32,000 nucleotides of DNA from Cupriavidus necator (lineage in GTDB: Bacteria; Pseudomonadota; Gammaproteobacteria; Burkholderiales; Burkholderiaceae), in NCBI RefSeq assembly GCF_016127575.1, contig NZ_CP066019.1, positions 630,001 to 662,000 on the forward strand, read 5' to 3'. Made by a program: the position numbers and the translations under genes. Shown here piece by piece: positions 3,045-24,104 of the stretch. Below the pieces are notes generated by a model. The model ran no database searches, was not told the DNA's origin, and was given only the letters and a program-made list of their open reading frames with translations. How positions within the stretch are numbered: position 1 is the first letter of the stretch; each line of letters opens with the position of its first letter.

Positions 3045-3077
3045 GGGGTCTCCTGGATTGCAGTGGGGAAATCGGTG

Positions 3078-3893: not shown

Positions 3894-4046
3894 GGTTCTC
3901 CGTGAAAAGAAGGCGGCGGGGATCGCCGCGCATGGCTGACTTGTAGCGGCAGCGCGGCGGCACGGCATCGTCTGTTTGGGTAGGACAGGGTGGCATCACA
4001 CGGCGTGTAGGGGTTTGCCCTTGAACGGCCGGGACGGGTCTGTCCT

Positions 4047-4064
4047 TAGTCTGTTTGGAGTATG
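4047..4064 (+). promoter_or_regulatory. cluster motif site TAGTCTGTTTGGAGTATG (candidate operator or activator site)
   Basis: One of 7 full matches to T[AC]GTC[CT]-N4-[GA]GA[CG][GT]A-TG. It lies in the divergent intergenic region between the SDR (3893, minus) and LuxR-1 (4290, plus). Confidence 0.4.
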
Positions 4065-4189
4065 TGTTCGGCCCGCCGGCGCGTGAGGATTGGCCTGTCC
4101 CGCAGGACTAGTCCGGCCAGCGTGTGCAGCCGGTCTTGCCTAGGGCAAACCACGAAGGCGGGGGCAAGCCGCGACCCCTTTGCCGTCCC

Positions 4190-4195
4190 TATAAT
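4190..4195 (+). promoter_or_regulatory. candidate -10 box (TATAAT) for LuxR-1
   Basis: A perfect TATAAT lies inside the 10-mer CCCTATAATC, which is identical to the one upstream of the paralogous regulator at 21761-21771. It is 95 nt upstream of ATG 4290. I see no convincing -35. Confidence 0.45.
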
Positions 4196-4289
4196 CAGGG
4201 CACAAAAAAGGGCCACAGAGCCCGTAGCAGGCCAGCGCCGACCCGGCACGCCCGAAGCGCTGCGCACGCCACAATGGAGACAGAGGAAA

Positions 4290-5474
4290 ATGCTGATGGA
4301 GGTTAGCCAGAACCAGGCGGCCGCACACCTGTTCGCGCAGGCGACGGTGTCGCTGTCGGAGTTCAGCACATTGCTGGGCAATATCTACCAGGGCCCGATG
4401 GAGCAGGTGCCCTGGGGCAAGGCACTGGAACAGATCCGCCGCCAGCTCAATGCCAACTATTGCACCCTGATCCTGCGCTCGCCGGCCACGGACCGGCCCG
4501 GGCTGATGATCAATGCGTCCGAGCATGGCTCGACCTTGCCGGGCGAGACCTCCTACAACAACTACTACTACGCGCTCGACCCGTTCATCGGCCTGCCGTC
4601 GGACCGGGTGGTGACCATCGATGAGCATCTCGGGCCCGGCGCCTGGTGCCAGAGCGAGCTCTACCAGCAGTTCCTCAAGGACATCGGCATCCGCTACATC
4701 CTTGGCGCGGACCTGCGTACCGATGACGGCGTCGAATGCCGCTTCCGCGTGTGCCGCGAGCATGACGGACGCGACTTCTCCGCCGCGGACAAGGCGCTGT
4801 GCACCGCGCTGCTGCCGCACCTGAAGCGCGCGGTGGACCTGCACTCGCGCATCGACGTGGTTGAATCCGAGCGCACCGTCTATGCCAGCGCCATCGACCG
4901 CATGCTGGTCGGGATGGTGATCCTGGACGAGTCCGGCACCATCATCAAGACCAATGCCGCCGCCGATGAAATCCTGGGCGCCAAGGATGGCATCCGTGTC
5001 GCCAAAGGCAGCCTGGACGTGGAATACGGCCAGGAGAACCGCAAGTTCCAGCGCCTGCTGCGCCAGGCCATGATGGGCCACCTCGGCACCACGCCGGCGC
5101 TGATGGAAGCGATGTCGATCACGCGCCCGTCCGGCAGCGCCAGGCTGGGCGTGCTGATCCGCACCATCCCGCTCAGCGAGTGGTCCGAGGACAACCGCAA
5201 GCGCCCCGCCTGCGTGGTGTTCATCCGCGACCCCGAGCGGCGCTCGCAGGCCTCGCACGAGGTCGTGCGCCAGCTGTTCGACTTCACCCCGGCGGAGACG
5301 CAGCTGGCGCTGCAGCTGGCCAACGGGCTCACGCTCGATGAGGCTGCGGACGAGCTCGGCATCAGCAAGAACACGGCGCGCGCGCACCTGCGCGCGATCT
5401 TCTCCAAGACCGGCGTGACCCGGCAGGCCACGCTGGTGCGCATGCTGCTGAGCAGCGTGATTTCTCTCGGCTAA
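4290..5474 (+). CDS. LuxR/GerE-family transcriptional regulator, TeiR/TesR-like (paralog 1)
   Basis: Start trimmed to MLMEVSQ at 4290, with RBS GGAGACAGAGGAAA. 394 aa. The C-terminal GerE HTH reads TPAETQLALQLANGLTLDEAADELGISKNTARAHLRAIFSKTGV. It is collinear with the ORF at 21839-23026 over its whole length. Confidence 0.88.
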   Translation: MLMEVSQNQAAAHLFAQATVSLSEFSTLLGNIYQGPMEQVPWGKALEQIRRQLNANYCTLILRSPATDRPGLMINASEHGSTLPGETSYNNYYYALDPFIGLPSDRVVTIDEHLGPGAWCQSELYQQFLKDIGIRYILGADLRTDDGVECRFRVCREHDGRDFSAADKALCTALLPHLKRAVDLHSRIDVVESERTVYASAIDRMLVGMVILDESGTIIKTNAAADEILGAKDGIRVAKGSLDVEYGQENRKFQRLLRQAMMGHLGTTPALMEAMSITRPSGSARLGVLIRTIPLSEWSEDNRKRPACVVFIRDPERRSQASHEVVRQLFDFTPAETQLALQLANGLTLDEAADELGISKNTARAHLRAIFSKTGVTRQATLVRMLLSSVISLG

Positions 5475-5489
5475 ACCACGTAACGCACG

Positions 5490-5834
5490 TCAGGGCTTTG
5501 CGCTGAGCACCAGCGCAAAGCCTTCCGGCGTTTCCAGCACCGCGCGCGTCTCATGCGGCCCCTGCGCCGCGGGCAGCGTCACGCCGGCACCGGCACCCAC
5601 CAGCCGCGCCATTGCCGCGGCGATATCGTCACCCTCATCCACCTTGAAGGCCAGCGCGGGCTGGTCCACCAGGCGTTCCTCGCCGGCCACCAGCGCCAGC
5701 GTCAGCGCGCCCGCGTCGAGCGCGCAATAGCGGTTTCCGTCGCGAAACTTCACCGGTAGTCCGAGTCCTTCCGTGAAGAACGGCAGCGCGGTGTCGATGT
5801 CCGCGACGGGGTAAAGCAGCAGCCTGGCTTGCAT
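5490..5834 (-). CDS. VOC (glyoxalase/bleomycin-resistance/dioxygenase) family protein
   Basis: Start trimmed to MQARLLLYPV at 5834, with RBS AGGAGGA. 114 aa, a single-domain betaalphabetabetabeta-type sequence (LYPVADIDTALPFFTEGLGL). Confidence 0.75.
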   Translation of the reverse strand: MQARLLLYPVADIDTALPFFTEGLGLPVKFRDGNRYCALDAGALTLALVAGEERLVDQPALAFKVDEGDDIAAAMARLVGAGAGVTLPAAQGPHETRAVLETPEGFALVLSAKP

Positions 5835-5908
5835 GATGTCCTGATCCTCCTGGTGAAAGCGGGCGTGATGCCCGCGGCCAATGATAGGGATGCTCCATGT
5901 CCTGTTCA

Positions 5909-5926
5909 TAATCCAATCAGACGATG
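5909..5926 (+). promoter_or_regulatory. cluster motif site TAATCCAATCAGACGATG
   Basis: Full motif match, 120 nt upstream of the LLM monooxygenase start and in the same orientation as that gene. Confidence 0.4.
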
Positions 5927-6045
5927 TTGCAACGCCTTGCGCCGACCACACTGCGATCACACAGGCCGTTTCGGGCCGGTGGCGCGGCAACGGGCGGCGC
6001 CCCGGCGGCGGTCCTGAACCATCAATGCCAGACAAGGGGACTGCA

Positions 6046-7197
6046 ATGCGTTTTTCACTGATCTATGAAGCCCAGACCGTCGATGCCTCGCGTGCCGGCG
6101 ACCACAAGGTGTTCGATGAAATCATGGAACAGGTGGTGCTGGCCGAGGACATGGGCTTTGACGTGGTCTGGGCGGTCGAGCACACCGCACTGACCAACTA
6201 TGCGCACATGAGCGCGCCGGAAACCTTCCTGGCCTTCGTCGCCGGGCGCACGCAGCGCATCGGCATCGGCCACGGCGTGGTGTGCCTGCCGCCGGCGATG
6301 AACCATCCGGTCAAGGTGGCCGAGCGCATCGCCACGCTGGACATCCTGTCCGGAGGCCGCGTGCACTTCGGCGTGGGCAAGGGCGGCACCCAGCAGGAGG
6401 CCGGCACCTTCGGCTACGACCTGAACAGCCTGCACCCGATGATCGACGAATCGATGTACCTGATCCCGAAGATCATGACGCAGGACGAGATCGAGCACGA
6501 CGGCGAGTTCATCAAGATCCCGCGCCGCCCGATCCACCCCAAGCCGCGCCAGGACCCGCACCCGCTGATGTACCTGGCCTGCACCAATGCCGACACGCTG
6601 CAGCGCGCCGGCGCGCGCGGCATGGGCGCGCTGGTGCTTGGCTTTGGCGGCCCCGAGGATGTCGCCAAAAAGAACGAGATCTACCGTACCGCGTGGGAGA
6701 CCCGCAAGCCTGAGGACCAGGTGGGCTTCCGCCCGCACCAGCACCTGGCCGCGCTGTGCCCGACCATCGTGCTGGAAGACGGCCTGGCCGCGCGCAAGAT
6801 CGGCATCAAGGGCCAGCGTTATTTCATGGAGTCGCTGTCGTACTGGTATGCCGGCGGCGAGCGGCCCGACCCGTCCACCTGGGACGACGAGCATGTCACC
6901 GCCACGGACGCGCAGGGCAAGGCCGTCATCAACACCAAGTTCGCCTCAGAGAAGGTCTCGGTGGATTTCAGCGACCCGTCGATGATGATGCTCAACCCCA
7001 ACCATGCCTACGGTACCGTCGAGGACTGTATCGGCTACGTGCAGCGCCTGATCGATTCCGGCGCCGACGAGATCCTGTTCATCTGCCAGATGGGCACGGT
7101 GCCGCAGTGGGCGCAGCTGGAAACCATCCGCAATATCGGCGAGCACGTGATCCCGCACTTCCGCAAGCAGGGACGGAAGCTGCGCGCGCTGGCTTGA
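6046..7197 (+). CDS. LLM-class (luciferase-like) flavin-dependent monooxygenase/oxidoreductase
   Basis: Start trimmed to MRFSLIYEAQ at 6046, with RBS AAGGGGA. 383 aa. Typical LLM N-terminus (FSLIYE...AEDMGFDVVWAVEHT) and C-terminal EILFICQMG. A REP hairpin follows the stop. Confidence 0.85.
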   Translation: MRFSLIYEAQTVDASRAGDHKVFDEIMEQVVLAEDMGFDVVWAVEHTALTNYAHMSAPETFLAFVAGRTQRIGIGHGVVCLPPAMNHPVKVAERIATLDILSGGRVHFGVGKGGTQQEAGTFGYDLNSLHPMIDESMYLIPKIMTQDEIEHDGEFIKIPRRPIHPKPRQDPHPLMYLACTNADTLQRAGARGMGALVLGFGGPEDVAKKNEIYRTAWETRKPEDQVGFRPHQHLAALCPTIVLEDGLAARKIGIKGQRYFMESLSYWYAGGERPDPSTWDDEHVTATDAQGKAVINTKFASEKVSVDFSDPSMMMLNPNHAYGTVEDCIGYVQRLIDSGADEILFICQMGTVPQWAQLETIRNIGEHVIPHFRKQGRKLRALA

Positions 7198-7223
7198 TCG
7201 GCGCTATGCAAGCCTGCGGGTTT

Positions 7224-7267
7224 GCTCCCCTCTCCCGCTTGCGGGAGAGGGGCCGGGGGAGAGGGCC
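7224..7267. repeat. REP-like palindromic element, copy 1
   Basis: Perfect inverted repeat CCCCTCTCCCGC-tt-GCGGGAGAGGGG (7227-7252), then GGGGAGAGGGCC. It shares the exact 19-mer CCCGCTTGCGGGAGAGGGG with the copy at 16578-16624. It starts 27 nt after the LLM stop. There is no T-tract. Confidence 0.7.
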
Positions 7268-7308
7268 AGAGCATCCACGAAGTCCCACTCACCAAATCGC
7301 GACATAGC

Positions 7309-7326
7309 TAGTCCCAACAGACGATG
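7309..7326 (+). promoter_or_regulatory. cluster motif site TAGTCCCAACAGACGATG
   Basis: Full motif match, 65 nt upstream of the hsaA-like GTG start. An extra left half-site AGTCCCACT lies at 7281-7289. Confidence 0.45.
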
Positions 7327-7390
7327 GCACCCGGCCCCACCGGTGCAAACATCAAGGCCAGCTACAAGACCAAGCAACAAGGAGACCGCG

Positions 7391-8584
7391 GTGCATCACG
7401 ACAACAATCCCAAGGAACTGGCGGCACGGCTGATCGCGCGTGCCGAGCAGATGATTCCGGTGCTGGCCGAGCGCGCCGCGCAGGCCGAGGCCGAAGCGCG
7501 CATTCCCGCCGAGACCATTGCCGACATGCAGGCCGCGGGCTTCTTCAAGGTGCTGCAGCCCCGCCGCCACGGCGGCTACGAACTCGATCCGCAGACCTTC
7601 TTCCGCATCCAGATGGCGCTGGCCAAGGGCTGCATGTCCACCGCCTGGGTCTATGGCGTGGTCGGCGTGCACAACTGGCAGCTGGCACTGTTCGACGAGC
7701 GCGCGCAGCAGGAAGTGTGGGGCAGCAACCCTGCCACGCTGATCGCCTCGACCTATATGCCGGTGGGCAAGGTCACGCCGGTCGAAGACGGCTATCGCTT
7801 CTCCGGCCACTGGAAGTTCTCCAGCGGCAGCGAACTGTGCGACTGGATCTTCCTGGGCGGGCTGGTGCCGCCGGCCGAGCCGGGCGGCGCCTATGACTAC
7901 CGCACCTTCCTGCTGCCGCGCTCCGACTACAAGATCGTGCGCAACTGGGATGTGCTGGGCCTGCGCGCGACCGGCAGCCACGATATCGTGGTCGAGGACG
8001 TGTTCGTGCCCGAGTACCGCACCCACCGCGCCGTCGATGGCGCCATGGGCACCAGCCCGGGGCTGGCGGTCAATGACGTTCCGCTGTACCGGCTGCCGTT
8101 CGCGCAGATCTTCGTGCGCGCGGTGTGCACCGCCTGCATCGGCGCGCTGGAAGGCACGCTCGATGACTTTGTCGCCTATGCCGACGGCCGCGTCAGCAGC
8201 AACGGTGGCGGAAAGACCGCGGAAGACGGCGGCGCGCAGATGGCTTGCGCCAACGCGCAGGTCGCCATCGACGAGATGCGGACCATCCTTGAGCGCAATT
8301 TCGACGAGCTGCTGGCCGTTGCGCGTGAAGGCGGCCAGGTGCAGACCCCGCGCCGCCTGCATTTCCGCTACCAGTCCGCGCAAGTGGCCGAGCGCTGCGC
8401 GCAGCTGGCCAACGGCCTGCTGCGCTATGCCGGCGGCAACGGCATCTACCGCAGCAACCCGATGGTGCGCCGCTTCCTCGACCTGCATGCGGCCCGCGCC
8501 CACTACGCCAACAACCTGGACCGCTTCGGCCAGAACCTGGGCGGCGTGATGATGGGCCGCGCCAACACTGACTTCTTCATTTGA
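7391..8584 (+). CDS. hsaA: acyl-CoA dehydrogenase-fold flavin-dependent monooxygenase, oxygenase component (HsaA/TesA1-like)
   Basis: I chose the GTG start at 7391, preceded by AAGGAGAC with a 6-nt spacer. 397 aa. The block LQPRRHGGYELDPQTFFRIQMALAKGCMSTAWVYGVVGVHNWQLALFDERAQQEVWG closely resembles Mtb HsaA as I recall it. Confidence 0.85.
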   Translation: MHHDNNPKELAARLIARAEQMIPVLAERAAQAEAEARIPAETIADMQAAGFFKVLQPRRHGGYELDPQTFFRIQMALAKGCMSTAWVYGVVGVHNWQLALFDERAQQEVWGSNPATLIASTYMPVGKVTPVEDGYRFSGHWKFSSGSELCDWIFLGGLVPPAEPGGAYDYRTFLLPRSDYKIVRNWDVLGLRATGSHDIVVEDVFVPEYRTHRAVDGAMGTSPGLAVNDVPLYRLPFAQIFVRAVCTACIGALEGTLDDFVAYADGRVSSNGGGKTAEDGGAQMACANAQVAIDEMRTILERNFDELLAVAREGGQVQTPRRLHFRYQSAQVAERCAQLANGLLRYAGGNGIYRSNPMVRRFLDLHAARAHYANNLDRFGQNLGGVMMGRANTDFFI

Positions 8585-8609
8585 GCCGCGCGCCGCACGG
8601 AGATCCAAT

Positions 8610-10364: not shown

Positions 10365-10885
10365 GCGCCAACCCCGAACCCAGCACCGCGCTGCGCGAAG
10401 ACATGCTGATGGCGATGCGCCGCATGGCGCGCTCGGTGGCGGTGATCAGCTGCCGCCATGGCGAGCGCCGCTATTCGATGTCCGTGACCGCGGTCGATTC
10501 GCTGTCCGCGGACCCGCCTTCGCTGCTGATCTGCATCAACCGCAATTCTTCGATCTACCCGCCGCTGGATGCCGGCGCGGACTTCTGCATCAACCTGCTG
10601 GCAGCCGACCACCGCGATATCGCAGTGGATTGCAGCGGCCGGCTCAAGGGCGAGGAACGCTTCACCAGTGGCGAGTGGGAGGACGATCTGCTCGGCGTGC
10701 CGTGCCTGCGCGATGCCCAGGCGAACCTGGTGTGCCAGCAGGATGGCCGCTTCGACTACGGCACGCACGCGGTCTTCATCGGACGCCTGCGCGAGGTAAA
10801 GCTGGCTGGCGAGGTGTCGCCGCTGGTCTATGTCGATGGTGCCTACACCACGTCCGCGCCGCTTGGCGCACTGTGTTCGGCCTAA
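10361..10885 (+). CDS. hsaB: flavin reductase family protein (HsaB/TesA2-like)
   Basis: The start overlaps the kstD stop (ATGA at 10361-10364) and follows an AGGAGG RBS. 174 aa, flavin_reduct-type sequence (MRRMARSVAVISCRHGERRYSMSVTAVDSLSADPPSLLICINRNS). Confidence 0.85.
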   Translation: MSANPEPSTALREDMLMAMRRMARSVAVISCRHGERRYSMSVTAVDSLSADPPSLLICINRNSSIYPPLDAGADFCINLLAADHRDIAVDCSGRLKGEERFTSGEWEDDLLGVPCLRDAQANLVCQQDGRFDYGTHAVFIGRLREVKLAGEVSPLVYVDGAYTTSAPLGALCSA

Positions 10886-10904
10886 GCCGGGAGCGCAAGC
10901 CAGC

Positions 10905-13359: not shown

Positions 13360-13387
13360 CCCCGCCCTCAAGCAATAGAAGGACATC

Positions 13388-14455: not shown

Positions 14456-14456
14456 C

Positions 14457-16097: not shown

Positions 16098-16114
16098 TGA
16101 ACAAGGAACCGATC

Positions 16115-16561
16115 ATGACCGACATTGCCGCCATTGCCGACCGCGTCGCGCGGCTGGAAGCCGCGGAGGCGATCCGCGCGCTCAAGCTGCGCTACCTGCG
16201 CGCTTGCGATGACAAGGACCCTGACGCGATGCGCGCCTGTTTCGTGCCGGACAACGCGCATATCCACTATGACCGGATCGGCAGCTTTGCCGGGCGCGAG
16301 GCACTGGTGCAGTGCTTTGCGGAACTGGCGTGCCGGCCGACGCTGCGGGAGATGCATTTTGCGGGGCAGGGGGATATCCGTGTGCTGGATGACAATCTGG
16401 CGCAGGGCAGCTGGGATCTGGCCTACCTGGCGCTGGATGATGCCAGTGGTTCGCGTACCTTTCTAACGGGACGTTATGCGGATGAGTATGTGCGGATCGA
16501 TGGTGCGTGGCTGATTCGCTCGACGATGTTCACGACGGGGTTGGTGTCGCAGGGAGGGTAG
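16115..16561 (+). CDS. nuclear transport factor 2 / SnoaL-like protein (BaiE-like fold)
   Basis: I preferred ATG 16115, with AAGGA 7 nt upstream. The alternative ATG 16097 overlaps the ligase stop (TGATG). It has Y-x4-D (RYLRACD) and a downstream MH, as in SnoaL_4/BaiE-type proteins. Confidence 0.75.
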   Translation: MTDIAAIADRVARLEAAEAIRALKLRYLRACDDKDPDAMRACFVPDNAHIHYDRIGSFAGREALVQCFAELACRPTLREMHFAGQGDIRVLDDNLAQGSWDLAYLALDDASGSRTFLTGRYADEYVRIDGAWLIRSTMFTTGLVSQGG

Positions 16562-16577
16562 GAGGCCGCGCTTGTTT

Positions 16578-16624
16578 GCACCCCTTTCCCGCTTGCGGGA
16601 GAGGGGTGCGCATGCGAGAGGTGG
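16578..16624. repeat. REP-like palindromic element, copy 2
   Basis: Inverted repeat CACCCCTTTCCCGC-tt-GCGGGAGAGGGGTG, a 14-bp stem with one G-T pair, then GCGAGAGGTGG. It lies between convergent genes (stops at 16561 and 16658). Confidence 0.7.
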
Positions 16625-16657
16625 TGGCAATTTCCAACGCTCGCGCGCGCCCAATTC

Positions 16658-17524
16658 CTATTCCACAATCGCCGGATGCACCGGCGGGGGCCCGCCCAGT
16701 GTCTGCCGGTACGACGGCGGCTGCACCCCCTCCGAATCGACGATGCCATAGGCCAGCGCCGCTTCGGCGCTAATCAACACCCGGCCGGACTTTTCCATCA
16801 GCGCAGGGTCGCGGTACAGCGCATCGATAATCCTCCCCGTGAACTCCGGCGTCTCCGCCACCGGCGCGAAGCCCGCGTACTTGTCCGGATGCTTTTCCCA
16901 TACCCGCAGTGTGCGCGCAGTGCGCAGCGGCCCCATCCACAGCGACACCGCCGCGACGCCGTAGGGCCGCAGGTCGACCGCCATGTCGTGCGCGAACTTG
17001 TCGATGCCCGCCTTCTGCGCGCCGTAGGCCGGACCGTGCATATAGCAGTTGGCACCGAATGACGAGGTGAACACGATCAGCCCGCGGCCCTGCGCGGCCA
17101 TCATGGGCGCGGCATGCCAGCTGGCGACGTAGCCTGAGCGCAGGCCCACGTCGAGGATGCCGGCCATCTCCAGTGGCTTCTGCCAGAACGGCCCCGGCAT
17201 GATGAGCTCGTCGTGCAGGAAGGTCGCATTGTTGACCAGGATGTCGATCCGACCGGATTCCTCTCGCACCCGCGCGAACAGACGCGCCACCTGCGCATCG
17301 TCGCGATGATCGCACGCGAGCGCGATGCCGCGCCCGCCCAGCGCATCGATCTCGCGTGCGGTGGCGTGGATGGTGCCGGGCAGCGGCGCGCTGCCTTCCT
17401 GCTCGGTGCGTCCGGTCACGTACACCGTGGCGCCTGCCGCACCGAGCGCCAGTGCGATGCCCTTGCCGGCACCGCGCGAGCCGCCCGTGACGACGGCGAC
17501 GATGGCCTGTTCCGCCTGCTTCAT
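16658..17524 (-). CDS. SDR family oxidoreductase
   Basis: Start trimmed to MKQAEQAIVAVVTGG at 17524, with RBS AAGGAGA. 288 aa with TGGSRGAGKG, NNAT and YGAQK. Confidence 0.85.
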   Translation of the reverse strand: MKQAEQAIVAVVTGGSRGAGKGIALALGAAGATVYVTGRTEQEGSAPLPGTIHATAREIDALGGRGIALACDHRDDAQVARLFARVREESGRIDILVNNATFLHDELIMPGPFWQKPLEMAGILDVGLRSGYVASWHAAPMMAAQGRGLIVFTSSFGANCYMHGPAYGAQKAGIDKFAHDMAVDLRPYGVAAVSLWMGPLRTARTLRVWEKHPDKYAGFAPVAETPEFTGRIIDALYRDPALMEKSGRVLISAEAALAYGIVDSEGVQPPSYRQTLGGPPPVHPAIVE

Positions 17525-17577
17525 GTGTGTCTCCTTCATTGATGTCATCGAAGCTTGGAACGGGCACGGCATCGCGA

Positions 17578-17595
17578 CATCCTTCGTTCGGACTA
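17578..17595 (-). promoter_or_regulatory. cluster motif site TAGTCCGAACGAAGGATG (read on the minus strand)
   Basis: Full motif match oriented toward the minus-strand SDR, 54 nt upstream of its start at 17524. Confidence 0.4.
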
Positions 17596-17613
17596 AGCGA
17601 TACCCGGTCCGGA

Positions 17614-17631
17614 TACTCCACGCGGACGATG
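17614..17631 (+). promoter_or_regulatory. cluster motif site TACTCCACGCGGACGATG
   Basis: Full motif match oriented toward the plus-strand SnoaL-SDR-HSD operon, 99 nt upstream of ATG 17730. A left half-site TAGTCCCC lies at 17657-17664. Confidence 0.4.
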
Positions 17632-17729
17632 GCCCCCGGCGCGGCAAGGCCGACGATAGTCCCCATCCCAACGACTGCCCGCGCGGCGTATCGCGGCGCT
17701 GGCGGTCACAACAAGGAGTGAGACTGGCC

Positions 17730-18149
17730 ATGTCTGAACTGGAGTGCAAGGAAGCCATCCATGCCCTGACCTGCCGCTATGCGCAGGCGGTGGACCGGCG
17801 CGATTTCGCGAAACTGGCAGCGCTGTTCACGGCGGACGCATGGCTGAGCGGGCCGGGCTTCCGCATGGACGGAGCGCAGGCGATTGCTGACGGCATGGCA
17901 TCGCTCGGCCAGTACAGCGCCACGCAGCATCACGTGCACCAGCAACTGGTCGAAGTCGATGGCGATACCGCGACCGGCGAGACCTATTGCGTGGCCAACC
18001 ACCTGTACGAACAGGACGGCGTGCCGCGCAAGCTGGACTGGGGCATCCGGTACCAGGACCGCTTCGTGCGGCGCGACGGCCAGTGGCGCATTGCCGCGCG
18101 CGAGCTGGTGGTGGACTGGACGCAGGACCTGCCGCTGCGAGGGGCATGA
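17730..18149 (+). CDS. nuclear transport factor 2 / SnoaL-like protein
   Basis: Start trimmed to MSELECKEAIHALTCRY at 17730, with AAGGAG upstream. 139 aa with Y-x4-D (RYAQAVD) and a QHHVH segment. It is coupled to the next gene by an ATGA overlap. Confidence 0.75.
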   Translation: MSELECKEAIHALTCRYAQAVDRRDFAKLAALFTADAWLSGPGFRMDGAQAIADGMASLGQYSATQHHVHQQLVEVDGDTATGETYCVANHLYEQDGVPRKLDWGIRYQDRFVRRDGQWRIAARELVVDWTQDLPLRGA

Positions 18150-19003
18150 TGACGACGACCCGTGTACTGGAAGGCAAGACAGCCCTAGTCACCGGCGGCG
18201 CCGGCGGCATCGGTGCGGCCAGCGCGCTGGCGCTGCTGCGCGACGGCGCGACGGTGGTCCTCATGGGGCGGCGGGGCGAAGCGCTGGAAGCGGCACGGCG
18301 CAGCCTGTGCGCGCAGGTGGCCGGCGCCACCGTGGCAATCAGCGTCGGCGACGCGTGCCGCGAGGATGACGTGCAGGCCGCGCTGCAGCAAGCCTGGGAG
18401 CTGCAGCGGCGCCTCGATATCGTGGTCGCGACCGTTGGTGGGGGCGGCTTCCGTCCGCTGCTGATGCATGACGCGGCCTCGCTGATGGCGGAGCTGGAGC
18501 TGAACATCGCCAGCGCATTCCTGGCGGTGCGCCACGCGTCGCCGCTGATGGCACCGCATGGCGGCACCATCGTCTGTATCTCGTCGAACGCGGCGCGCAT
18601 GACCTGCCGGTGGCTGTCGGCGTACTGCGCCGCCAAGGCGGGGCTGGAAGCGTTCGTGCGCGCCGCGGCCGAGGAGCTGGCGGGATGCGGCATCCGCGTC
18701 AATGCGGTGCGGCCGGGGCTAACCCGCTCCGGCGCGACCGGGCCGATGTTCGACAACCCGGCCATCCTCGACAAGTTCGTCGCGCAGATGCCGCTGGGGC
18801 GCGCCGGCGAACCGGACGACATTGCCAGTGCGGTGCGCTACCTGGCGGGGCCGGAATCGGGCTGGGTGACCGGCCAGAGCATCGCCGTGGACGGTGGCAG
18901 CGAGCTGCGCGGCAATCCCATCCTCGATGAAACCGTGGCTGCGGTGTATGGCGAAGCCGCGCTGCAGGCCGTGCTGGCCGGCAGGATTCCCGAAGCCGGC
19001 TGA
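18146..19003 (+). CDS. SDR family oxidoreductase
   Basis: The start overlaps the upstream stop (ATGA at 18146-18149). 285 aa with TGGAGGIGAA and YCAAK. Confidence 0.85.
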   Translation: MMTTTRVLEGKTALVTGGAGGIGAASALALLRDGATVVLMGRRGEALEAARRSLCAQVAGATVAISVGDACREDDVQAALQQAWELQRRLDIVVATVGGGGFRPLLMHDAASLMAELELNIASAFLAVRHASPLMAPHGGTIVCISSNAARMTCRWLSAYCAAKAGLEAFVRAAAEELAGCGIRVNAVRPGLTRSGATGPMFDNPAILDKFVAQMPLGRAGEPDDIASAVRYLAGPESGWVTGQSIAVDGGSELRGNPILDETVAAVYGEAALQAVLAGRIPEAG

Positions 19004-19028
19004 AGCCGGCAACTCAAGGAGAGAAACG

Positions 19029-19787
19029 ATGCATCAAGTCAGGGACAAGGTTGCGCTGGTCACCGGCGCGGCCAGCGGGGTAGGGCGCGCCGACGCGCTG
19101 ATGCTGGCGGCCGAAGGCGCGCGCGTGGTCATCAGCGATGTCAACCAGGAGGCCGGGCAGGCACTGGCCCGCGAGATCGGGGATGCGGCCATGTTCGTGC
19201 GCCACGACATTGCCAGCGAGGAGGACTGGCGCAAAGCCATGGCCGCCACGCAGGACCGCTTCGGCCGGCTCGACGTGCTGGTCAACAATGCGGCCATCTG
19301 TCCGCTCGGGTCAATCGAGGAAACCTCGCTCGACAGCTGGCGGCAGGTCATGCGCGTCAATGCCGACGGCTATTTCCTGGGCTGCAGGTTCGGTGTGCAG
19401 GCAATGAAGGGCAACCCCGCCGGGGGCTCCATCGTGGTGATGTCGTCGGTGGCGGCGCTGGGCGGGCTGCCCATGATGTGCGCATACAGCGGCGCCAAGG
19501 GCGCCGTTACCGCGCTGACGCGCAGCGTGGCCGTGCACTGCAAGCAGAACGGCTACCGGATCCGCTGCAACTCGATCCATCCCGATGGCGTCTGGACGCC
19601 GATGACGCAGGCGCTGGTGCCGGACCTGGATCCGGCCACGCTTGGTATCGGTACGGACCCGATGGCACGCATGTGCCTGCCGGAGGATGTGGCCAACCTG
19701 GTCCTGTTCCTGGCTTCGGACGCGTCGCGCTTTATCAATGGCGCGGAATTGCGCATCGATAACGCGCAGTTGATCTCGGGGCTGTAA
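19029..19787 (+). CDS. SDR family oxidoreductase, 3beta/17beta-hydroxysteroid dehydrogenase-like (paralog 2)
   Basis: RBS AAGGAGAG. 252 aa with TGAASGVGR and YSGAK. It shares GYRIRCNSIHPDG and ANLVLFLASD.SRFINGAELRIDNAQ with the paralog at 12595-13359. Confidence 0.85.
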   Translation: MHQVRDKVALVTGAASGVGRADALMLAAEGARVVISDVNQEAGQALAREIGDAAMFVRHDIASEEDWRKAMAATQDRFGRLDVLVNNAAICPLGSIEETSLDSWRQVMRVNADGYFLGCRFGVQAMKGNPAGGSIVVMSSVAALGGLPMMCAYSGAKGAVTALTRSVAVHCKQNGYRIRCNSIHPDGVWTPMTQALVPDLDPATLGIGTDPMARMCLPEDVANLVLFLASDASRFINGAELRIDNAQLISGL

Positions 19788-19791
19788 GGCC

Positions 19792-19827
19792 CGCTGCGGC
19801 GGCCCGCGCAAGCAGGCTGCCGCAGCG
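19792..19827. terminator. stem-loop between convergent genes (possible bidirectional terminator)
   Basis: CGCTGCGGC (19792-19800) pairs perfectly with GCCGCAGCG (19819-19827), giving a 9-bp stem and an 18-nt loop. There is no T-tract. It sits between the stops at 19787 and 19833. Confidence 0.35.
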
Positions 19828-19832
19828 CCGGG

Positions 19833-20732
19833 CTAACTGTACTGCGTCACGATCTCGCCGACCGTGCGCAGGATGTCGCGGCGGCGATAGCCGAGCAGGG
19901 CGGCCTCGGCCGCGTCCGGCTCATAGTAGAGGGTGTTGCCCCGGCCGAAGCAGATGGCCGAGTCCGGCAGCAACGGATGCTCCTGGTCGATGACAGGCGG
20001 CACCGGGCGGCCCGCGTCGCGGAAGAAGGCACCGAAATAGTCCTGGAACGACAGGTTCTCGTCCCCTACCAGGTAAGCCTTGCCGTTTTCACCGCGCAAC
20101 AGCGCGCCTTCGATCGCTTCCGAGAGCGAAGTGGCCGAGATGAAGTTGACGCCGCCGGGTGGCGCGAAATCCGGCATCGGCGCAAAGTTGCCGCGCGCGT
20201 AGTCGGTATAGGCCTTGAACATCGGCACCATCAGGCCCGGCACCGTGCCCACGACGAACGGCGCGTTCACGCTGCTCACGCGGAAGGCATCGGTGGCCAG
20301 CGCGCGAACGCCTTCGTCGGCCAGCTTGCGCGAGCGGATATAGGCGTTGTCCTCGGCCAGCTGCGGCTGTGCCTGCGGGTAGAAGCTGCCGACGTAGACG
20401 GCGACCCGGATCCCGGCAGCGCGCGCCGCGCGCAGGAAACGCGGCACGCCCTCGATGTTGGCGCGCTCCCAGTGCGCGGCTTCGTCGCCGCCGGGCGGCA
20501 CGTGGCGCACATCGTTGCCGGCGGCGAAGACCAGCGCGTCGAAGGCGCCGAGCTGCGCGGCCGGCACGTCGTTGGCGATGTAGTCGCAGCGCAGGAAGTC
20601 CAGCCCGCCCAGCGTCGTGCCGGGCGCGGGGCGGTTGCGCCCCGCGATGGTGACGTCGTGCCCGCGGCTGCGCAGGTGCAGGGCCGCGTGGCCCCCGATC
20701 ATGCCGGTGCCGCCGACGATCAGTATCTTCAT
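19833..20732 (-). CDS. NAD(P)-dependent epimerase/dehydratase-type (extended or atypical SDR) oxidoreductase
   Basis: 299 aa with RBS AAGGAGA and the N-terminus MKILIVGGTGMIGGH. The active-site region reads YIRSRK rather than the strict YxxxK. Confidence 0.8.
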   Translation of the reverse strand: MKILIVGGTGMIGGHAALHLRSRGHDVTIAGRNRPAPGTTLGGLDFLRCDYIANDVPAAQLGAFDALVFAAGNDVRHVPPGGDEAAHWERANIEGVPRFLRAARAAGIRVAVYVGSFYPQAQPQLAEDNAYIRSRKLADEGVRALATDAFRVSSVNAPFVVGTVPGLMVPMFKAYTDYARGNFAPMPDFAPPGGVNFISATSLSEAIEGALLRGENGKAYLVGDENLSFQDYFGAFFRDAGRPVPPVIDQEHPLLPDSAICFGRGNTLYYEPDAAEAALLGYRRRDILRTVGEIVTQYS

Positions 20733-20775
20733 GCTTGTCTCCTTGGTGGGGTGGTGTGGCCGCGGTGCGCGGCCA

Positions 20776-21606
20776 TCAGAGGTTCATGCCGTTGCCGCCG
20801 ATGACCGGCATGTTGGTCCACGTGCCCTTGGGGTCGCGATACCAGCCGGCCGCGGCCAGCGCGCCGCCATTGACATGCAGCGCCGTGCCGGTAATCCAGG
20901 CCGCGCGCTCGCTGGCCAGGAACAGGATGCCGTCGGCAATGTCGCGCGGCGTGCCGAAGCGGCCCAGCGGAATCCAGCGCGGGATATGGTGCTGGTGTTC
21001 CGCAGCGACCATCTGCGACACCGGAACCTGCGGCGTTTCGGTGGTCTCGGGGGCGATCAGGTTGACGCGGATCCCCGCCGGCGCCAGCTCCAGCGCCAGG
21101 CTCTGCGTGAAGCCGGTGATGGCGGCCTTGAAGGCGCCGTAGACGCTGCAGTAGGGAATGCCGCGGAAGGCCTCGATCGACGACACCGTGACGATGCTGC
21201 CGGCGCCACTGCGCCGCAGCAGCGGCAGCATGGCGCGCGTGACGGTGAAGACGTGGCCCAGGTTGGCGGCGTACAGGCTGGCGATCTCGTCGTCGGCATA
21301 GTGCTCGAACGGCTTGGCGATGCGCAGGAAATCGCCGACGTTGTTGACCAGCACGTCCAGCACCCCGAAACGCTGTTCGACCTGCGCAGCCAGTTCGCGC
21401 ACGGTGCCGGCATCGGTGGCATCGCCCTGTACCACCAGCACTTCCGTGCCGGGCTTGTTCAACAACTCCCGGGCTTGCCCGGCGCGCTGTGCTTCGATCT
21501 CGATCAGCGCCACGCGCGCACCCTGTTCCAGGAAGGCTTGCGCGGTGGCGAGCCCGATGCCGGCGCCGCCGCCGGTGACCAGCACGGTCTTGTCGGTGAA
21601 ATCCAT
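20776..21606 (-). CDS. SDR family oxidoreductase
   Basis: Start trimmed to MDFTDKTVLVTGGGAGIG at 21606, with RBS AAGGAGA. 276 aa with NNVG and YGAFK. Confidence 0.85.
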   Translation of the reverse strand: MDFTDKTVLVTGGGAGIGLATAQAFLEQGARVALIEIEAQRAGQARELLNKPGTEVLVVQGDATDAGTVRELAAQVEQRFGVLDVLVNNVGDFLRIAKPFEHYADDEIASLYAANLGHVFTVTRAMLPLLRRSGAGSIVTVSSIEAFRGIPYCSVYGAFKAAITGFTQSLALELAPAGIRVNLIAPETTETPQVPVSQMVAAEHQHHIPRWIPLGRFGTPRDIADGILFLASERAAWITGTALHVNGGALAAAGWYRDPKGTWTNMPVIGGNGMNL

Positions 21607-21764
21607 CTGAGTCGTTCTCCTTCGGTTGCCCTGTGGTGTGCGGCCATTTGATCGGCGGCAGGCGGGACCGGCATCGTCCGATTGCAGGTCAGGGAAAACA
21701 CTTAGATGGTGCAAACCAGGGCGAACAAGGGCGCCGCGCGCCGGACATCGGCAGGCAGCCTCCC

Positions 21765-21770
21765 TATAAT
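21765..21770 (+). promoter_or_regulatory. candidate -10 box (TATAAT) for LuxR-2
   Basis: It lies inside CCCTATAATC, identical to the 10-mer upstream of LuxR-1. A possible -35, CGGACA, sits 17 nt upstream. It is 69 nt before ATG 21839. Confidence 0.45.
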
Positions 21771-21838
21771 CTGCGCTGCTCAGGTGCCGCAGAGCACCGG
21801 CCAGTCCATGCATGGGGCGAGGAAACAGGAGACAGACA

Positions 21839-23026
21839 ATGTTGATGGCGACCGTTGAGGCGCAAGGGGTGGCGTCGCCCTGGTTTGCGCAGTCCGGACT
21901 GAGCCTGCCGCAATTCAGCGCGCTGCTGGCGGCGGTCTACGAAGGGCCGATGGAACCCGTGCCCTGGGGCCGCGCGCTGGAAATGCTGCGCAAGCAACTT
22001 GGTGCCAGCTATGTGAGCTTCATCCTGCGCTCGCCCGCGAGCGACCGCAGTGGCATCGCGGTGCACGCGTCGCAGGACGGCACTTCGCTGGAGGCCGAGG
22101 CGTCGTACAACACCTACTACTACGCCATCGATCCCTTTATCAACCTGCCCACGGACCGGGCCGTGACGGTCGACGAAGCGATGGGCGCCGGCAACTGGTG
22201 CCGCAGCGAGATCTACCGGCAGTTCCTGCAGCCGCTTGGGGTGCGCTACCTGCTGGGCGCCGACATCCGCACCGAAGACGGGGTCGAGTGCCGGCTGCGC
22301 GTCTGCCGCCAGCACGACGCGCAGGACTTCTCCGAGGTGGACAAGGCGGCGTGCGCCACCATCCTGCCGCACCTGAGGCGCGCGGTCCGGCTGCATTCCA
22401 GGCTGGATGTGGTCGAATCGGAGCGCAGCCTCTATGCGGGCGCGATCGACCGCATGCTGGTGGGCATGGTCATCCTCGACGCAGCCGGTGCAATCCTGAA
22501 GAAGAATGCGGAAGCCGACGAGATCCTGGCGGAGAACGACGGCATCCGCCTCAACGGCGCCAACTTCGAGATCGCCTACGCACAGGAAAGCCGCAAGTTC
22601 CAGTACCTGCTGCGCCGCGCCCAGATGGGGCATCACGGCAGCGCGCCGGCGCTGGCCGAAGCCATGTCGATCACCCGCCCCTCGGGGCGCGGCAAGCTGG
22701 GCGTGCTGATCCGCACCATTCCGCTCAGCGAATGGTCCGAAGACCACCGCCATCGCCCGGCCTGCGCGGTCTTTATCCGCGATCCCGAGCGCAAGTCGCG
22801 CGCCTCGCACGAGGTGGTGCGCAAGCTGTTCGACCTCACGCCCGCCGAGACCGCGCTGGCGCTGGTGCTTGCCGACGGCATGACGCTCGACGAAGCCGCC
22901 GAGGCGCTGGGCACCAGCAAGAACACGGCGCGCGCCCACCTGCGCGCGATCTTCTCCAAGACCGGGGTCACGCGGCAGGCCACGCTGGTGCGCATGCTGC
23001 TGAGCAGTGTGGTGACGCTCGGCTGA
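21839..23026 (+). CDS. LuxR/GerE-family transcriptional regulator, TeiR/TesR-like (paralog 2)
   Basis: I chose the start at MLMATVE (21839) by analogy with paralog 1. The RBS is AGGAGACAGA. 395 aa. The last roughly 45 residues are nearly identical to paralog 1. Confidence 0.88.
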   Translation: MLMATVEAQGVASPWFAQSGLSLPQFSALLAAVYEGPMEPVPWGRALEMLRKQLGASYVSFILRSPASDRSGIAVHASQDGTSLEAEASYNTYYYAIDPFINLPTDRAVTVDEAMGAGNWCRSEIYRQFLQPLGVRYLLGADIRTEDGVECRLRVCRQHDAQDFSEVDKAACATILPHLRRAVRLHSRLDVVESERSLYAGAIDRMLVGMVILDAAGAILKKNAEADEILAENDGIRLNGANFEIAYAQESRKFQYLLRRAQMGHHGSAPALAEAMSITRPSGRGKLGVLIRTIPLSEWSEDHRHRPACAVFIRDPERKSRASHEVVRKLFDLTPAETALALVLADGMTLDEAAEALGTSKNTARAHLRAIFSKTGVTRQATLVRMLLSSVVTLG

Positions 23027-23100
23027 GCGCCAGGGCGTCATCCACGCACGCGTGTTCCAGGGCACGCGTAACTCCCTCGTGGCCCGACGATCGGTTCTCC

Positions 23101-23118
23101 TAGTCCGAATGGAGGATG
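23101..23118 (+). promoter_or_regulatory. cluster motif site TAGTCCGAATGGAGGATG
   Basis: Full motif match, 165 nt upstream of ATG 23283. It is immediately followed by a further GAGTCCC half-site. Confidence 0.4.
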
Positions 23119-23282
23119 AGTCCCGCCATGCGCGCCCCTAGCATGCATCCGACAAGCGGGCGCGGCACACGGATGGCACCTCAGACGGACGCGGCGACGC
23201 GTGCTGTCCGCGCTTGGTCCTGTTCCGCGCACGCATCAACCTGTCCGGCCCCGGCCGGCACCTGTACCAGGGAGCGTGGAGC

Positions 23283-23999
23283 ATGGAAAAAGTCATCTAT
23301 ATCGTCTGGCGCGATTCTCAGACCGAGCCGGGGGAGTTCGCGCGCCGGCTGCGCACGACGCTTGCGGACAAGCTATTGGCGCTGGGCGCGCGCGGACTGC
23401 AGGTGAACGTGGCCGATGACGCGGTGTTGCCGGCCGCGGGCCTGCGCCAGGCGAATACCCGCCCGCAGATGGACGGGCTGGTCTCGGTCTGGATGGACAG
23501 CGCCATCGACCGCCAGCGGCAGCCGTTCGACCAGGCGATCGCGGCCGCCGTGGGCCGCATGGCCGGCTACCTCGTGACCGAGTCCCAGCCCATTCGCAAT
23601 ACACGTTTCCCGGCCGCGCCCGGCGAACGCACGCCCGGCTTCGCGCAGCTTGCCTTCCTTACCCGGCCGCCCCGGCTTACGCCGCAGGCCTGGCTGGACA
23701 TCTGGCACAACCACCACACGCCGGTGGCGGTCGAGACCCAGGACAACTTCCTCTACGTGCAGAACGTGGTGGTGCGGCCGCTCACCTACGCCGCGCCGCA
23801 CTACGACGCCATTGTCGAAGAGGGCTTCCCCGATGCGGCGATGACCGACCCGCAGGCGTTCTTCGACGCGGCCGGCGACGAAGACAAGTTCCAGCGCAAC
23901 CTGCAGGCCATGATGGAAAGCTGCCAGCGCTTCATCGACTTCGACAAGATCGACGTGATCCCCACCAGCCAGTACCTCGTGCGCCCGGCAGCGGCGTGA
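23283..23999 (+). CDS. conserved protein of unknown function (possibly two EthD-like / dimeric alpha-beta-barrel-like halves)
   Basis: Start trimmed to MEKVIYIVWRD at 23283, with GGAG motifs upstream. 238 aa with coding-like codon bias. I could not recognise a catalytic motif. Confidence 0.65.
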   Translation: MEKVIYIVWRDSQTEPGEFARRLRTTLADKLLALGARGLQVNVADDAVLPAAGLRQANTRPQMDGLVSVWMDSAIDRQRQPFDQAIAAAVGRMAGYLVTESQPIRNTRFPAAPGERTPGFAQLAFLTRPPRLTPQAWLDIWHNHHTPVAVETQDNFLYVQNVVVRPLTYAAPHYDAIVEEGFPDAAMTDPQAFFDAAGDEDKFQRNLQAMMESCQRFIDFDKIDVIPTSQYLVRPAAA

Positions 24000-24017
24000 C
24001 GCCCGCGCCGGACCGGC

Positions 24018-24035
24018 TAGTCCCACTGGACGATG
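24018..24035 (+). promoter_or_regulatory. cluster motif site TAGTCCCACTGGACGATG (best palindrome)
   Basis: Full motif match, 70 nt upstream of the extradiol dioxygenase ATG 24105. The core is GTCC-N4-GGAC. Confidence 0.45.
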
Positions 24036-24104
24036 TGCCGGGCTCCAGCGCACGGAAGAATGGTCCCATCAGCCAGCAGTGGCAACGAACCTGAGGAGAC
24101 CGGC

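Follow-up and report, generated by a model that had tools for sequence, protein, structure and literature searches.

The regulation of steroid degradation is much less understood in Proteobacteria than in Actinobacteria, where KstR and KstR2 have been characterised; the proteobacterial regulator TesR/TeiR has been known genetically since 2004. Here we analyse an 18-bp element, referred to below as the box, which recurs in a 32,000-nucleotide stretch of DNA of Cupriavidus necator (contig NZ_CP066019.1, positions 630,001 to 662,000; this whole stretch is the window, and its own numbering is used throughout). The window is identical to a part of chromosome 2 of C. necator H16 (AM260480.1, about 704,663-736,662), a strain which we take to be the same as ATCC 17699. 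Testosterone supports the growth of C. necator ATCC 17699, while cholate and cholesterol do not (PMC4810484). The genes in the window form a betaproteobacterial steroid-degradation cluster for the catabolism of testosterone and progesterone, and the boxes upstream of them are probably the activator sites of a steroid-responsive regulon governed by a LuxR-type protein, placed within class II sigma-70 promoters.

Passages from two papers present TesR/TeiR of Comamonas as a LuxR-type positive regulator required for the induction of the tes cluster (PMC6678751, PMC6895838), and no DNA site for it is defined in the literature passages searched. The window resembles this system in that LuxR-type helix-turn-helix (HTH) regulators of about 390 amino acids, here named LuxR-1 and LuxR-2, are encoded in a steroid cluster. 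In three Comamonadaceae loci described below, an scd-like cluster ends with a gene for this type of regulator, just as the tesB-to-tesR cluster ends with tesR, whereas in H16 both regulators lie inside the cluster. Synteny is the only ground on which the H16 regulators are taken as putative orthologs of TesR/TeiR: Comamonas was not among the best 120 matches of each of three protein searches, and the Bergstrand supplements contain no H16 or tesR entries. According to a passage of one paper, tesR-like genes had been reported only in C. testosteroni (PMC6895838); contrary to this, the protein searches found the regulator family to be widespread in Burkholderiaceae and Comamonadaceae.

Another LuxR-family gene, EGO55_13855 of the Caenibius tardaugens pdc cluster, is situated beside a luciferase-like (LLM) Baeyer-Villiger monooxygenase gene, is mildly induced by progesterone and has been suggested to encode an activator (PMC12239570); we found no described site for its product. 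The window and Novosphingobium ES2-1 likewise have a LuxR gene paired with an LLM gene. Unlike the H16 cluster, the loci of the sphingomonad homologs that were retrieved, which are only 30-35% identical, lack the box.

With regard to the DNA site itself, the dyad of the lux box spans 20 bp and has its centre at -42.5. The class II sites of LuxR and TraR in quorum-sensing promoters are dyads of 16-20 bp at about -42.5 that overlap a poor -35 element. The box resembles them in its dyad symmetry and in its predicted position, as well as in the GerE/LuxR HTH dimer, the use of one site for divergent promoters and the autoregulated regulator gene, all of which are predicted here. The box differs from the lux box in its sequence (TAGTCC-N4-GGACGA), in the tandem PAS/GAF-like modules of its presumed regulator, which has no autoinducer-binding domain, and in its association with steroid catabolism instead of quorum sensing. 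NarL, a phosphorylated response regulator, recognises 7-2-7 sites (TACYYMT-N2-AKRRGTA) at variable positions. The half-site TA(G/C)TCC and the inverted layout over 16 bp appear to agree with the NarL heptamer pair at nearly every position, as would be expected of a site read by a GerE-type HTH; unlike in the NarL system, LuxR-1 and LuxR-2 have no receiver domain and the position of the box relative to the predicted -10 is fixed. The actinobacterial regulators KstR and KstR2 are TetR-family repressors with the motifs TnnAACnnGTTnnA or AnCAAGnnCTTGnT. Their operators, like the box, are palindromic cis-elements repeated before the steroid operons of one cluster, but phylum, protein family and sequence are different, and repression stands against the activation geometry predicted here. 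No TetR gene is present among the annotated genes of the window, and a reading of the sites as KstR-type operators in an actinobacterial context was rejected, the window being a part of C. necator H16 chromosome 2. Literature searches with the motif string returned unrelated primer sequences only, and the cis-element appears to be undescribed in the literature searched.

The box and its predicted composite promoter

The initial annotation had listed seven full copies of the box, starting at 4047, 5909, 7309, 17614, 23101 and 24018 on the forward strand and at 17578 on the reverse strand, and all seven are present there. The motif is real, and it is much more frequent than chance would give. 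If no more than two mismatches are allowed, the degenerate pattern has 16 matches against 1.73 expected, a number reached in none of 100 shuffles. A position weight matrix (PWM) built from the seven sites scores them at 21-29 bits; among all other independent positions of the window, the highest score is 12. When the -10 element described below is added, the resulting composite model gives 10 matches with a score of at least 12 in the window and none in each of 20 shuffles; the 10 correspond to nine promoters and the palindromic shadow of the 4047 box. All of them fall within the intergenic DNA, which makes up 6.5% (1997 nt) of the annotated part of the window, so that the earlier claim of an exclusively intergenic location is upheld. 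The seven full sites and two weak ones, 3966(-) and 21672(-), are all intergenic and each faces the first gene of a transcription unit; the reported distance of 54-226 nt from site to start codon agrees with the public gene calls. It was also correct that the 10-mer GTCTGTTTGG occurs exactly twice (3970-3979 and 4049-4058), and that the boxes of SDR3 and SnoaL(NTF2) stand back to back in the divergent region 17525-17729.

The anatomy of the element was resolved by collecting 282 sites and reducing them to 79 non-redundant ones (flanks differing by more than 35%), for which the information content was computed from -60 to +80. The proposal of a 6-N4-6 inverted repeat held for the 16-bp dyad TAGTCC-N4-GGACGA, whose pairs T1/A16, G3/C14, T4/A13, C5/G12 and C6/G11 are conserved in the 79 sites; it did not hold for the terminal TG of the 18-mer, which belongs to a -35 element and not to the palindrome. 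The sole conserved signal outside the 18-mer spans positions 39-44, the first T of the box being position 1. There, A40 (60/79), A43 (49/79) and T44 (63/79) give the pattern nAnnAT, and these are the bases that are strongly conserved in the -10 hexamer of sigma-70 promoters. Of the 79 sites, 67% have a hexamer with A at its second and T at its sixth place that begins at position 39, and 22% have one that begins at position 40; any other offset accounts for no more than 5%, and the reverse orientation for no more than 14%. A -10-like hexamer with a spacer of 17-18 nt is found in 89% of the sites. Given this hexamer at 39-44, positions 16-21 (ATGnnn) would therefore be the -35 hexamer, of which only TG (xTG) is conserved. 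A is mildly enriched at position 51, i.e. 7 nt after the -10. If transcription begins 7 nt past the -10, the centre of the dyad (positions 1-16) would lie at about -42.5, the position of a class II activator, and the site would be of the activator type at a fixed place of about -42.5 rather than a free-floating operator.

This composite anatomy explains the asymmetry of the motif, with a distal TAGTCC and a proximal GGACGA followed by TG, as well as its constant orientation toward the gene and the conservation of TG to the same extent as the palindrome. It also accounts for the weak sites 3966(-) and 21672(-), which keep the proximal half-site, the ATG and a correctly spaced -10 while the distal half is degenerate; both are conserved in relatives and are real. 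A generic sigma-70 consensus scan of 3900-7450 and 17450-24150 called only two promoters, the glx-facing TGAACA-16-TATCAT and a box-less one before LuxR-2, CGGACA-17-TATAAT. The remaining box promoters in the two stretches were below consensus quality, which is expected if they depend on an activator.

Four other weak matches of the initial annotation did not survive. The match at 4109, which might have been a third LuxR-1 box, has no -10 and is not conserved as a 6-N4-6 box: its right half varies, and its left half belongs to a separate invariant block with a different palindrome (4096-4116). AGTCCCACT at 7281 has no conservation in relatives, TAGTCCCC at 17657 overlaps the -10 of the SnoaL/NTF2 gene (Sno2), and GAGTCCC at 23119 is located inside the -35/spacer region of the EthD-domain gene; the last two have no independent support or conservation. 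The units that had been assigned to the regulon (LLM, the hsaA operon, the SDR/NTF2 units, the unknown-protein/hsaC unit and LuxR-1) proved right in the tests of both sites and conservation, the degenerate 3966(-) site brings in the SDR-esterase-RibBA operon as well, and the list grows by one further unit, namely glx (5490-5834, reverse strand), which shares the 5909 box.

Conservation in relatives and in metagenomes

For the analysis of conservation, 22 LuxR homologs were aligned and 80 genomic loci of Cupriavidus, Ralstonia, Paraburkholderia and Burkholderia were collected, one of which (AM260480.1) is an exact match to window positions 3388-24455. Orthologs of the window genes were mapped by tblastn, and the best PWM match in the orientation of the gene was recorded within 300 nt upstream. 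A box of at least 15 bits precedes LLM in 62 of 62 cases and hsaC in 12 of 12, EthD in 92%, Sno2 in 85%, hsaA in 80%, and the esterase gene, where it leads its operon, in 62%; the 99th percentile of 1610 coding windows of the same size is 9.6 bits. At the same threshold, no box was found in the 80 loci upstream of the orthologs of kstD1, flr, SDR2, kshB, fadD3, Sno1, SDR4 and SDR5, nor of those of the epimerase, ipdA, ipdB, ech20, NMO, ech2 and ACAD. Thus, the box is kept at orthologous promoters in four genera and is absent before operon-internal genes. From Cupriavidus to Burkholderia, the 18-mer hardly changes, and its flanks diverge.

A scan of metagenome contigs that took no account of genes and asked for exact matches to the composite TAGTCC-N4-GGACGATG-N21-ANNAT gave at least 120 stretches, with 122 matches listed. 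At least 40 of the 120 stretches listed carry non-SDR homologs of the steroid genes of the window at 45% identity or more; these homologs are mostly only 50-65% identical (range 45-65%) and therefore come from other taxa. Among the listed matches, 45 of 122 are situated 40-244 nt upstream of a steroid-gene homolog in the same orientation, the genes behind them being flr (10), hsaA (8), SDR5 (7), ipdA (6), hsaC (4), kstD (3) and others. Further composite boxes that are not exact numbered 19 in 254 kb of steroid-positive contigs against 12 in the remaining 471 kb. LuxR homologs of 41-47% identity were encoded on 8 of the 120 listed stretches. Many of the remaining listed matches were on low-GC contigs without homologs, which is consistent with chance. 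The enrichment near steroid genes, which the initial annotation had named as a point to check, is thus very strong in this unbiased scan.

A distant regulator from one metagenome locus (L175) retrieved proteins named from Polaromonas, Variovorax, Simplicispira, Limnohabitans and Caldimonas. In Simplicispira psychrophila (L209) and in two Limnohabitans-type contigs (L210 and L211) the regulator is the last gene of the long scd-like cluster mentioned above, which contains ECH, ACADs, thiolases, SDRs and MaoC; the surroundings of the cluster in L210 and L211 also include an operon of tesDEFG type and a divergent unit of hsaA and kstD. With the H16-derived PWM, composite boxes were located in the gaps before operons in L209 (7309(+)) and L210 (7360(+), 11193(+), 19405(-) and 19477(+)), the last two standing back to back like 17578(-) and 17614(+) of the window. 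A search of the loci of Sphingobium TomMM7A and Novosphingobium ES2-1 gave no convincing sites, with one marginal 15-bit match in a divergent SDR gap.

Separately, one metagenome contig of 46% GC (L101) carries an exact composite box with a -10 CATAAT (2217-2260(+)), 69 nt upstream of an hsaA homolog of 42% identity, which hints that the box extends beyond Burkholderiales.

LuxR-1 and LuxR-2 as candidate binders, and the alternatives

The two regulators are 68% identical to each other. In both, the C-terminal GerE HTH is all that Pfam recognises; the family is not represented by a model in NCBIfam, which yields a weak PAS hit only, and no sequence match was found in the PDB. An AlphaFold model (mean pLDDT 75) consists of two alpha/beta sensor-like modules and a long joining helix, followed by a four-helix HTH. 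Foldseek matches it to the PAS-GAF tandems of phytochromes and, over sensor plus HTH, to VqmA, EL222, RhlR, TraR and SdiA at low global TM-scores (0.2-0.35), the matches to TraR, RhlR and SdiA being weak, with a TM of 0.3. The autoinducer-binding domain PF03472 was not found by Pfam, no REC domain was found by Pfam or NCBIfam, and response-regulator models cover only the C-terminal HTH (residues ~330-390). LuxR-1 and LuxR-2 are neither quorum-sensing LuxR proteins nor response regulators; going by the model, they are predicted one-component ligand-sensing LuxR-type factors with tandem PAS/GAF-like modules. Their recognition helix, SKNTARAHLRAIFSKTGVTRQ, is identical, and the pattern [KR]NT[AS]RAHLR..FSKTGV.RQ is kept in box-associated homologs down to 41% overall identity, while it is altered in the homolog of Novosphingobium ES2-1, whose locus has no box. 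This conservation supports the link between LuxR and box without proving it; judging from it and from co-occurrence, LuxR-1 and LuxR-2 are likely to bind the box.

The two regulator genes differ in their promoters. LuxR-1 has the predicted box-dependent promoter at 4047 (predicted transcription start site (TSS) 4097) together with a conserved TATAAT (4190-4195), while no box was found before LuxR-2 in any of 13 orthologs. Both genes carry the invariant element TCCCTATAAT (4190-4195 and 21765-21770), a consensus -10 lying 70-95 nt before the start codon, and these elements are probably box-independent basal promoters. A GC-rich hairpin-like sequence follows the element in both paralogs. A reasonable circuit would hold both sensors at a basal level, with positive feedback through LuxR-1 and, possibly, a brake at its +1.

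In the mechanism that we infer, with its start sites, binding protein, direction of effect and ligand, each site would be a composite, activator-dependent sigma-70 promoter. A dimer of the tandem-sensor regulator (LuxR-1 and/or LuxR-2) would occupy the 16-bp dyad, whose proximal end would abut the weak -35 (ATGnnn), with the -10 (nAnnAT) 17-18 nt further on and the centre of the dyad near -42.5. Loaded with a steroid, the regulator would recruit RNA polymerase from there, by class II activation, and ten transcription units of the testosterone/progesterone cluster would be switched on. LuxR-1, being one of them, would feed back positively, and LuxR-2, made from its box-independent TATAAT promoter, would supply the basal sensor.

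Several points weigh against this reading. The placement at -42.5 hangs on an assumed -10 and on predicted TSSs, the promoters of SDR1 and SDR6 retain only one good half-site, and some Paraburkholderia and Burkholderia promoters have AGG, TCG or AAG in place of ATG. The 80 loci were picked through their LuxR gene, so that co-occurrence there is partly by construction and only the metagenome scan is unbiased; in addition, the conservation counts are overstated as independent events, since many of the loci are phylogenetically related. The sphingomonad homologs with their boxless loci count here as well, and so does the description of TeiR, in a passage of one paper, as a (polar) membrane-associated kinase (PMC6678751), which is awkward for a one-component DNA-binding activator.

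The same sites could be read as repressor operators, with a LuxR-type or other protein sitting on the -35 region until a steroid or metabolite binds. The overlap of the dyad with the -35 would suit this, as would the second invariant box-like palindrome, which lies at the +1 predicted for LuxR-1 P1, where repressors typically bind, and LuxR-type repressors of steroid genes are reported for Comamonas in a passage of PMC6678751; passages of the same paper and of PMC6895838, on the other hand, make TesR/TeiR positive regulators. With xTG as the only conserved part of the -35 and the failed sigma-70 scan, the promoters look weak even unoccupied. The distance to the -10, strictly fixed at all promoters and in all lineages, is typical of class II activators, whereas that of operators usually varies, and we therefore hold repression to be unlikely. 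The regulator that binds the box might instead be encoded elsewhere in the genome, and the selection of loci by their LuxR gene leaves room for that by biasing co-occurrence. We judge this quite unlikely in view of the LuxR homologs on the 8 short contigs that were found through the box alone among the 120 listed, of the regulator that ends box-bearing tes-like clusters in Comamonadaceae, and of a recognition helix conserved across homologs of 41-100% identity that share the box; moreover, no other regulator gene is present among the annotated genes of the window, and dyad symmetry and half-site sequence agree with GerE-type HTH dimers.

It is very improbable that an alternative sigma factor, and not a transcription factor, reads the motif as part of a core promoter. 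Such an element would have just the fixed distance to a downstream hexamer and the strict orientation observed, but the motif is a dyad, a single copy of which serves two divergent promoters, and its conserved block reaches 15 nt upstream of the -35, too far for sigma contact; the hexamer and its 17-18 nt spacing from xTGnnn are the sigma-70 pattern, and the motif does not fit sigma-54 or ECF patterns. An RNA element (a hairpin, a leaderless start or a small upstream ORF) or a dispersed repeat without a regulatory role is extremely improbable. All copies end in ATG, which in several of them opens a long ORF, and a short stem could form between GTCC and GGAC. The conservation, however, is confined to steroid-gene promoters. 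The ORFs are arginine/alanine-rich junk, mostly out of frame with the genes, and therefore the ATG was taken as a part of the DNA signal and rejected as a start codon or leaderless start, the public gene starts being 54-226 nt downstream. A hairpin was rejected as well, as half-site changes are uncompensated and the box lies upstream of the predicted TSS; Rfam gave no matches in the window.

Predicted promoters and genes of the cluster, and the meaning of the proposed regulon

The gene order was drawn from Pfam and public gene calls. All ten predicted TSSs, given here with their promoters, are 21-193 nt upstream of start codons. At the left end, SDR1 (3078-3893), the esterase (2088-3044) and a RibBA-like gene (DHBP synthase plus GTP cyclohydrolase II; 994-2448), which is the last of the operon, are on the reverse strand. 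Their degenerate box, CTACCCAAACAGACG-ATG (3966-3983, reverse; composite score 20.7), is followed by a -10 TACAAG (3940-3945) and a predicted TSS at ~3933(-), with the start codon at 3893; 8 relatives from Cupriavidus/Ralstonia show no change in the proximal half-site, the ATG or the -10. A RibBA-like gene, an odd partner of steroid genes, also adjoins the cluster in Paraburkholderia (L043, 6659-7882, reverse), and it may be related to the flavin supply for the many flavoenzymes.

LuxR-1 (4290-5474, forward; 394 amino acids in the public gene call) is preceded by promoter P1, with the box TAGTCTGTTTGGAGT-ATG (4047-4064, forward), which is conserved in Cupriavidus relatives, a -10 GAGGAT (4085-4090) and a predicted TSS at ~4097, its start codon being at 4290. 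An alignment of 9 intergenic regions revealed the invariant block TGTCCCGCAGGACTAGTCCGG (4096-4116), predicted to span +1 to +20 of P1, which holds a box-like core cTGTCC-CGCA-GGACTA (4095-4110) and a perfect palindrome GGACTAGTCC (4105-4114). The block may be an operator for the auto-repression of LuxR-1. The conserved TATAAT within CCGTCCCTATAATC (4190-4195, forward) is a candidate box-independent promoter P2, and a paralogous element is found upstream of LuxR-2. An inverted pair, TAGGGGTTTGCCC (4008-4020) and TAGGGCAAACC (4141-4151), about 130 nt apart, brackets the LuxR-1 box region in most Cupriavidus, and a block similar to it, CTAGGGCAAACCACGAA, is present upstream of LuxR-2 in some relatives.

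The divergent promoters of glx (a glyoxalase-like protein of 114 amino acids; 5490-5834, reverse) and LLM (6046-7197, forward) have one common box, CATAATCCAATCAGACGATG (5907-5926), which reads ATG at the end of both strands and has a properly spaced -10 on each side. Facing LLM, the box at 5909-5926 has a -10 CACACT (5947-5952) and a predicted TSS at ~5959; facing glx, the box at 5907-5924 (reverse) has a -10 TATCAT (5881-5886) and a predicted TSS at ~5874(-). The composite score of the glx-facing strand is only 9.8, and because of this low score the glx promoter is proposed mainly from the sigma-70 scanner call and the conservation of TATCAT in relatives.

The hsaA gene (7391-8584, forward) leads the operon hsaA-kstD-flr-FAD2-SDR-kshB-fadD3-SnoaL, in which it is followed by a kstD-like gene, a flavin reductase gene (flr), a second FAD_binding_2 protein, SDR2, kshB-like and fadD3-like genes and SnoaL, ending at 16561. 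Its box (7309-7326) has a -10 AAACAT (7347-7352) and a predicted TSS at ~7359, and the start codon is at 7391. In the following divergent region, the box of SDR3 (16658-17524, reverse) lies at 17578-17595 (reverse), with a -10 CAAGCT (17552-17557), a predicted TSS at ~17545(-) and the start codon at 17524. The public H16 call places the SDR3 start at 17572 (304 amino acids), upstream of the predicted TSS; the 288-residue version starting at 17524, used in other assemblies, agrees with the promoter, so that the promoter prediction fits a corrected gene start. On the other side, the box at 17614-17631 (forward) has a -10 GACGAT (17652-17657) and a predicted TSS at ~17664, and serves the SnoaL(NTF2)-SDR4-SDR5 operon, whose SnoaL/NTF2 gene (17730-18149, start codon at 17730) is followed by SDR4 and SDR5 (end at 19787).

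The epimerase and SDR6 (19833-21606, reverse) have a half-degenerate box, ACCTGCAATCGGACG-ATG (21672-21689, reverse; composite score 13.1), with a -10 TCAAAT (21646-21651), a predicted TSS at ~21639(-) and the start codon at 21606. The site, including its non-matching distal part, is invariant in 12 Cupriavidus/Ralstonia sequences. Upstream of this box, GTGTTTTCCCTG (reverse strand, 21690-21708) is invariant in all relatives, although it does not fit the distal half-site, and it might act as an UP-like element or bind a second factor. LuxR-2 (21839-23026, forward; 395 amino acids) has a box-independent, near-consensus sigma-70 promoter, predicted by the scan at 21742-21770 (forward), whose TCCCTATAAT element is invariant in relatives. 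Downstream of it, the EthD-domain gene (23283-23999, forward) has a box at 23101-23118 with a -10 TAGCAT (23139-23144) and a predicted TSS at ~23151, with the start codon at 23283, and the hsaC-ipdAB-echA20-NMO-ECH-ACAD operon, in which hsaC (24105-25001, forward) is followed by ipdA, ipdB, echA20, NMO, ECH and ACAD up to at least 30664, has a box at 24018-24035 with a -10 AAGAAT (24056-24061) and a predicted TSS at ~24068, with the start codon at 24105.

Two observations concern the reach of the regulon. One Cupriavidus locus (L007) has divergent boxes ending in AAG/AGG at 2189(-) and 2236(+), as do about 15 other Cupriavidus loci. In L007 the pair lies between a PAPS-reductase gene and a gene for a 759-residue sulfotransferase-domain protein, which is followed by an SDR; in H16 this gene pair is expected roughly 3.5 kb upstream of the first base of the window. 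This suggests that the regulon includes sulfur or steroid-sulfate chemistry. The LuxR-1/LLM/esterase/SDR1 module (2088-7197), every unit of which is boxed, matches in its composition the module for progesterone entry in Caenibius, where the LLM protein performs the Baeyer-Villiger oxidation of progesterone to testosterone acetate (PMC12239570). By analogy, H16 may also use progesterone-type C21 steroids.

We consider the chances about even that the box is the missing cis-element of the proteobacterial steroid regulon, i.e. the DNA target of the TesR/TeiR family, kept in class II geometry from Burkholderiaceae to Comamonadaceae and possibly beyond (one low-GC contig), with a two-paralog circuit in H16 in which LuxR-2 would be the constitutive sensor, LuxR-1 would amplify the response by positive feedback and the +1 palindrome would act as a brake. 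If this is true, the disputed mode of action of TeiR, a kinase or a DNA-binding activator, would become directly testable, and steroid regulons, as well as promoters for biosensors, would be predictable from sequence. A defined box with a fixed geometry allows regulons to be predicted from genomes and metagenomes, and it already flags extra members, the PAPS-reductase/sulfotransferase pair and the glyoxalase-like gene; it also gives the exact mutations and TSS positions for testing. The LLM-esterase-SDR module is marked by it as co-regulated, which fits an entry route from progesterone via testosterone acetate to testosterone. C. necator H16 is a widely used chassis, and the box promoters may serve as compact steroid-inducible promoters for biosensors and for the engineering of this strain.

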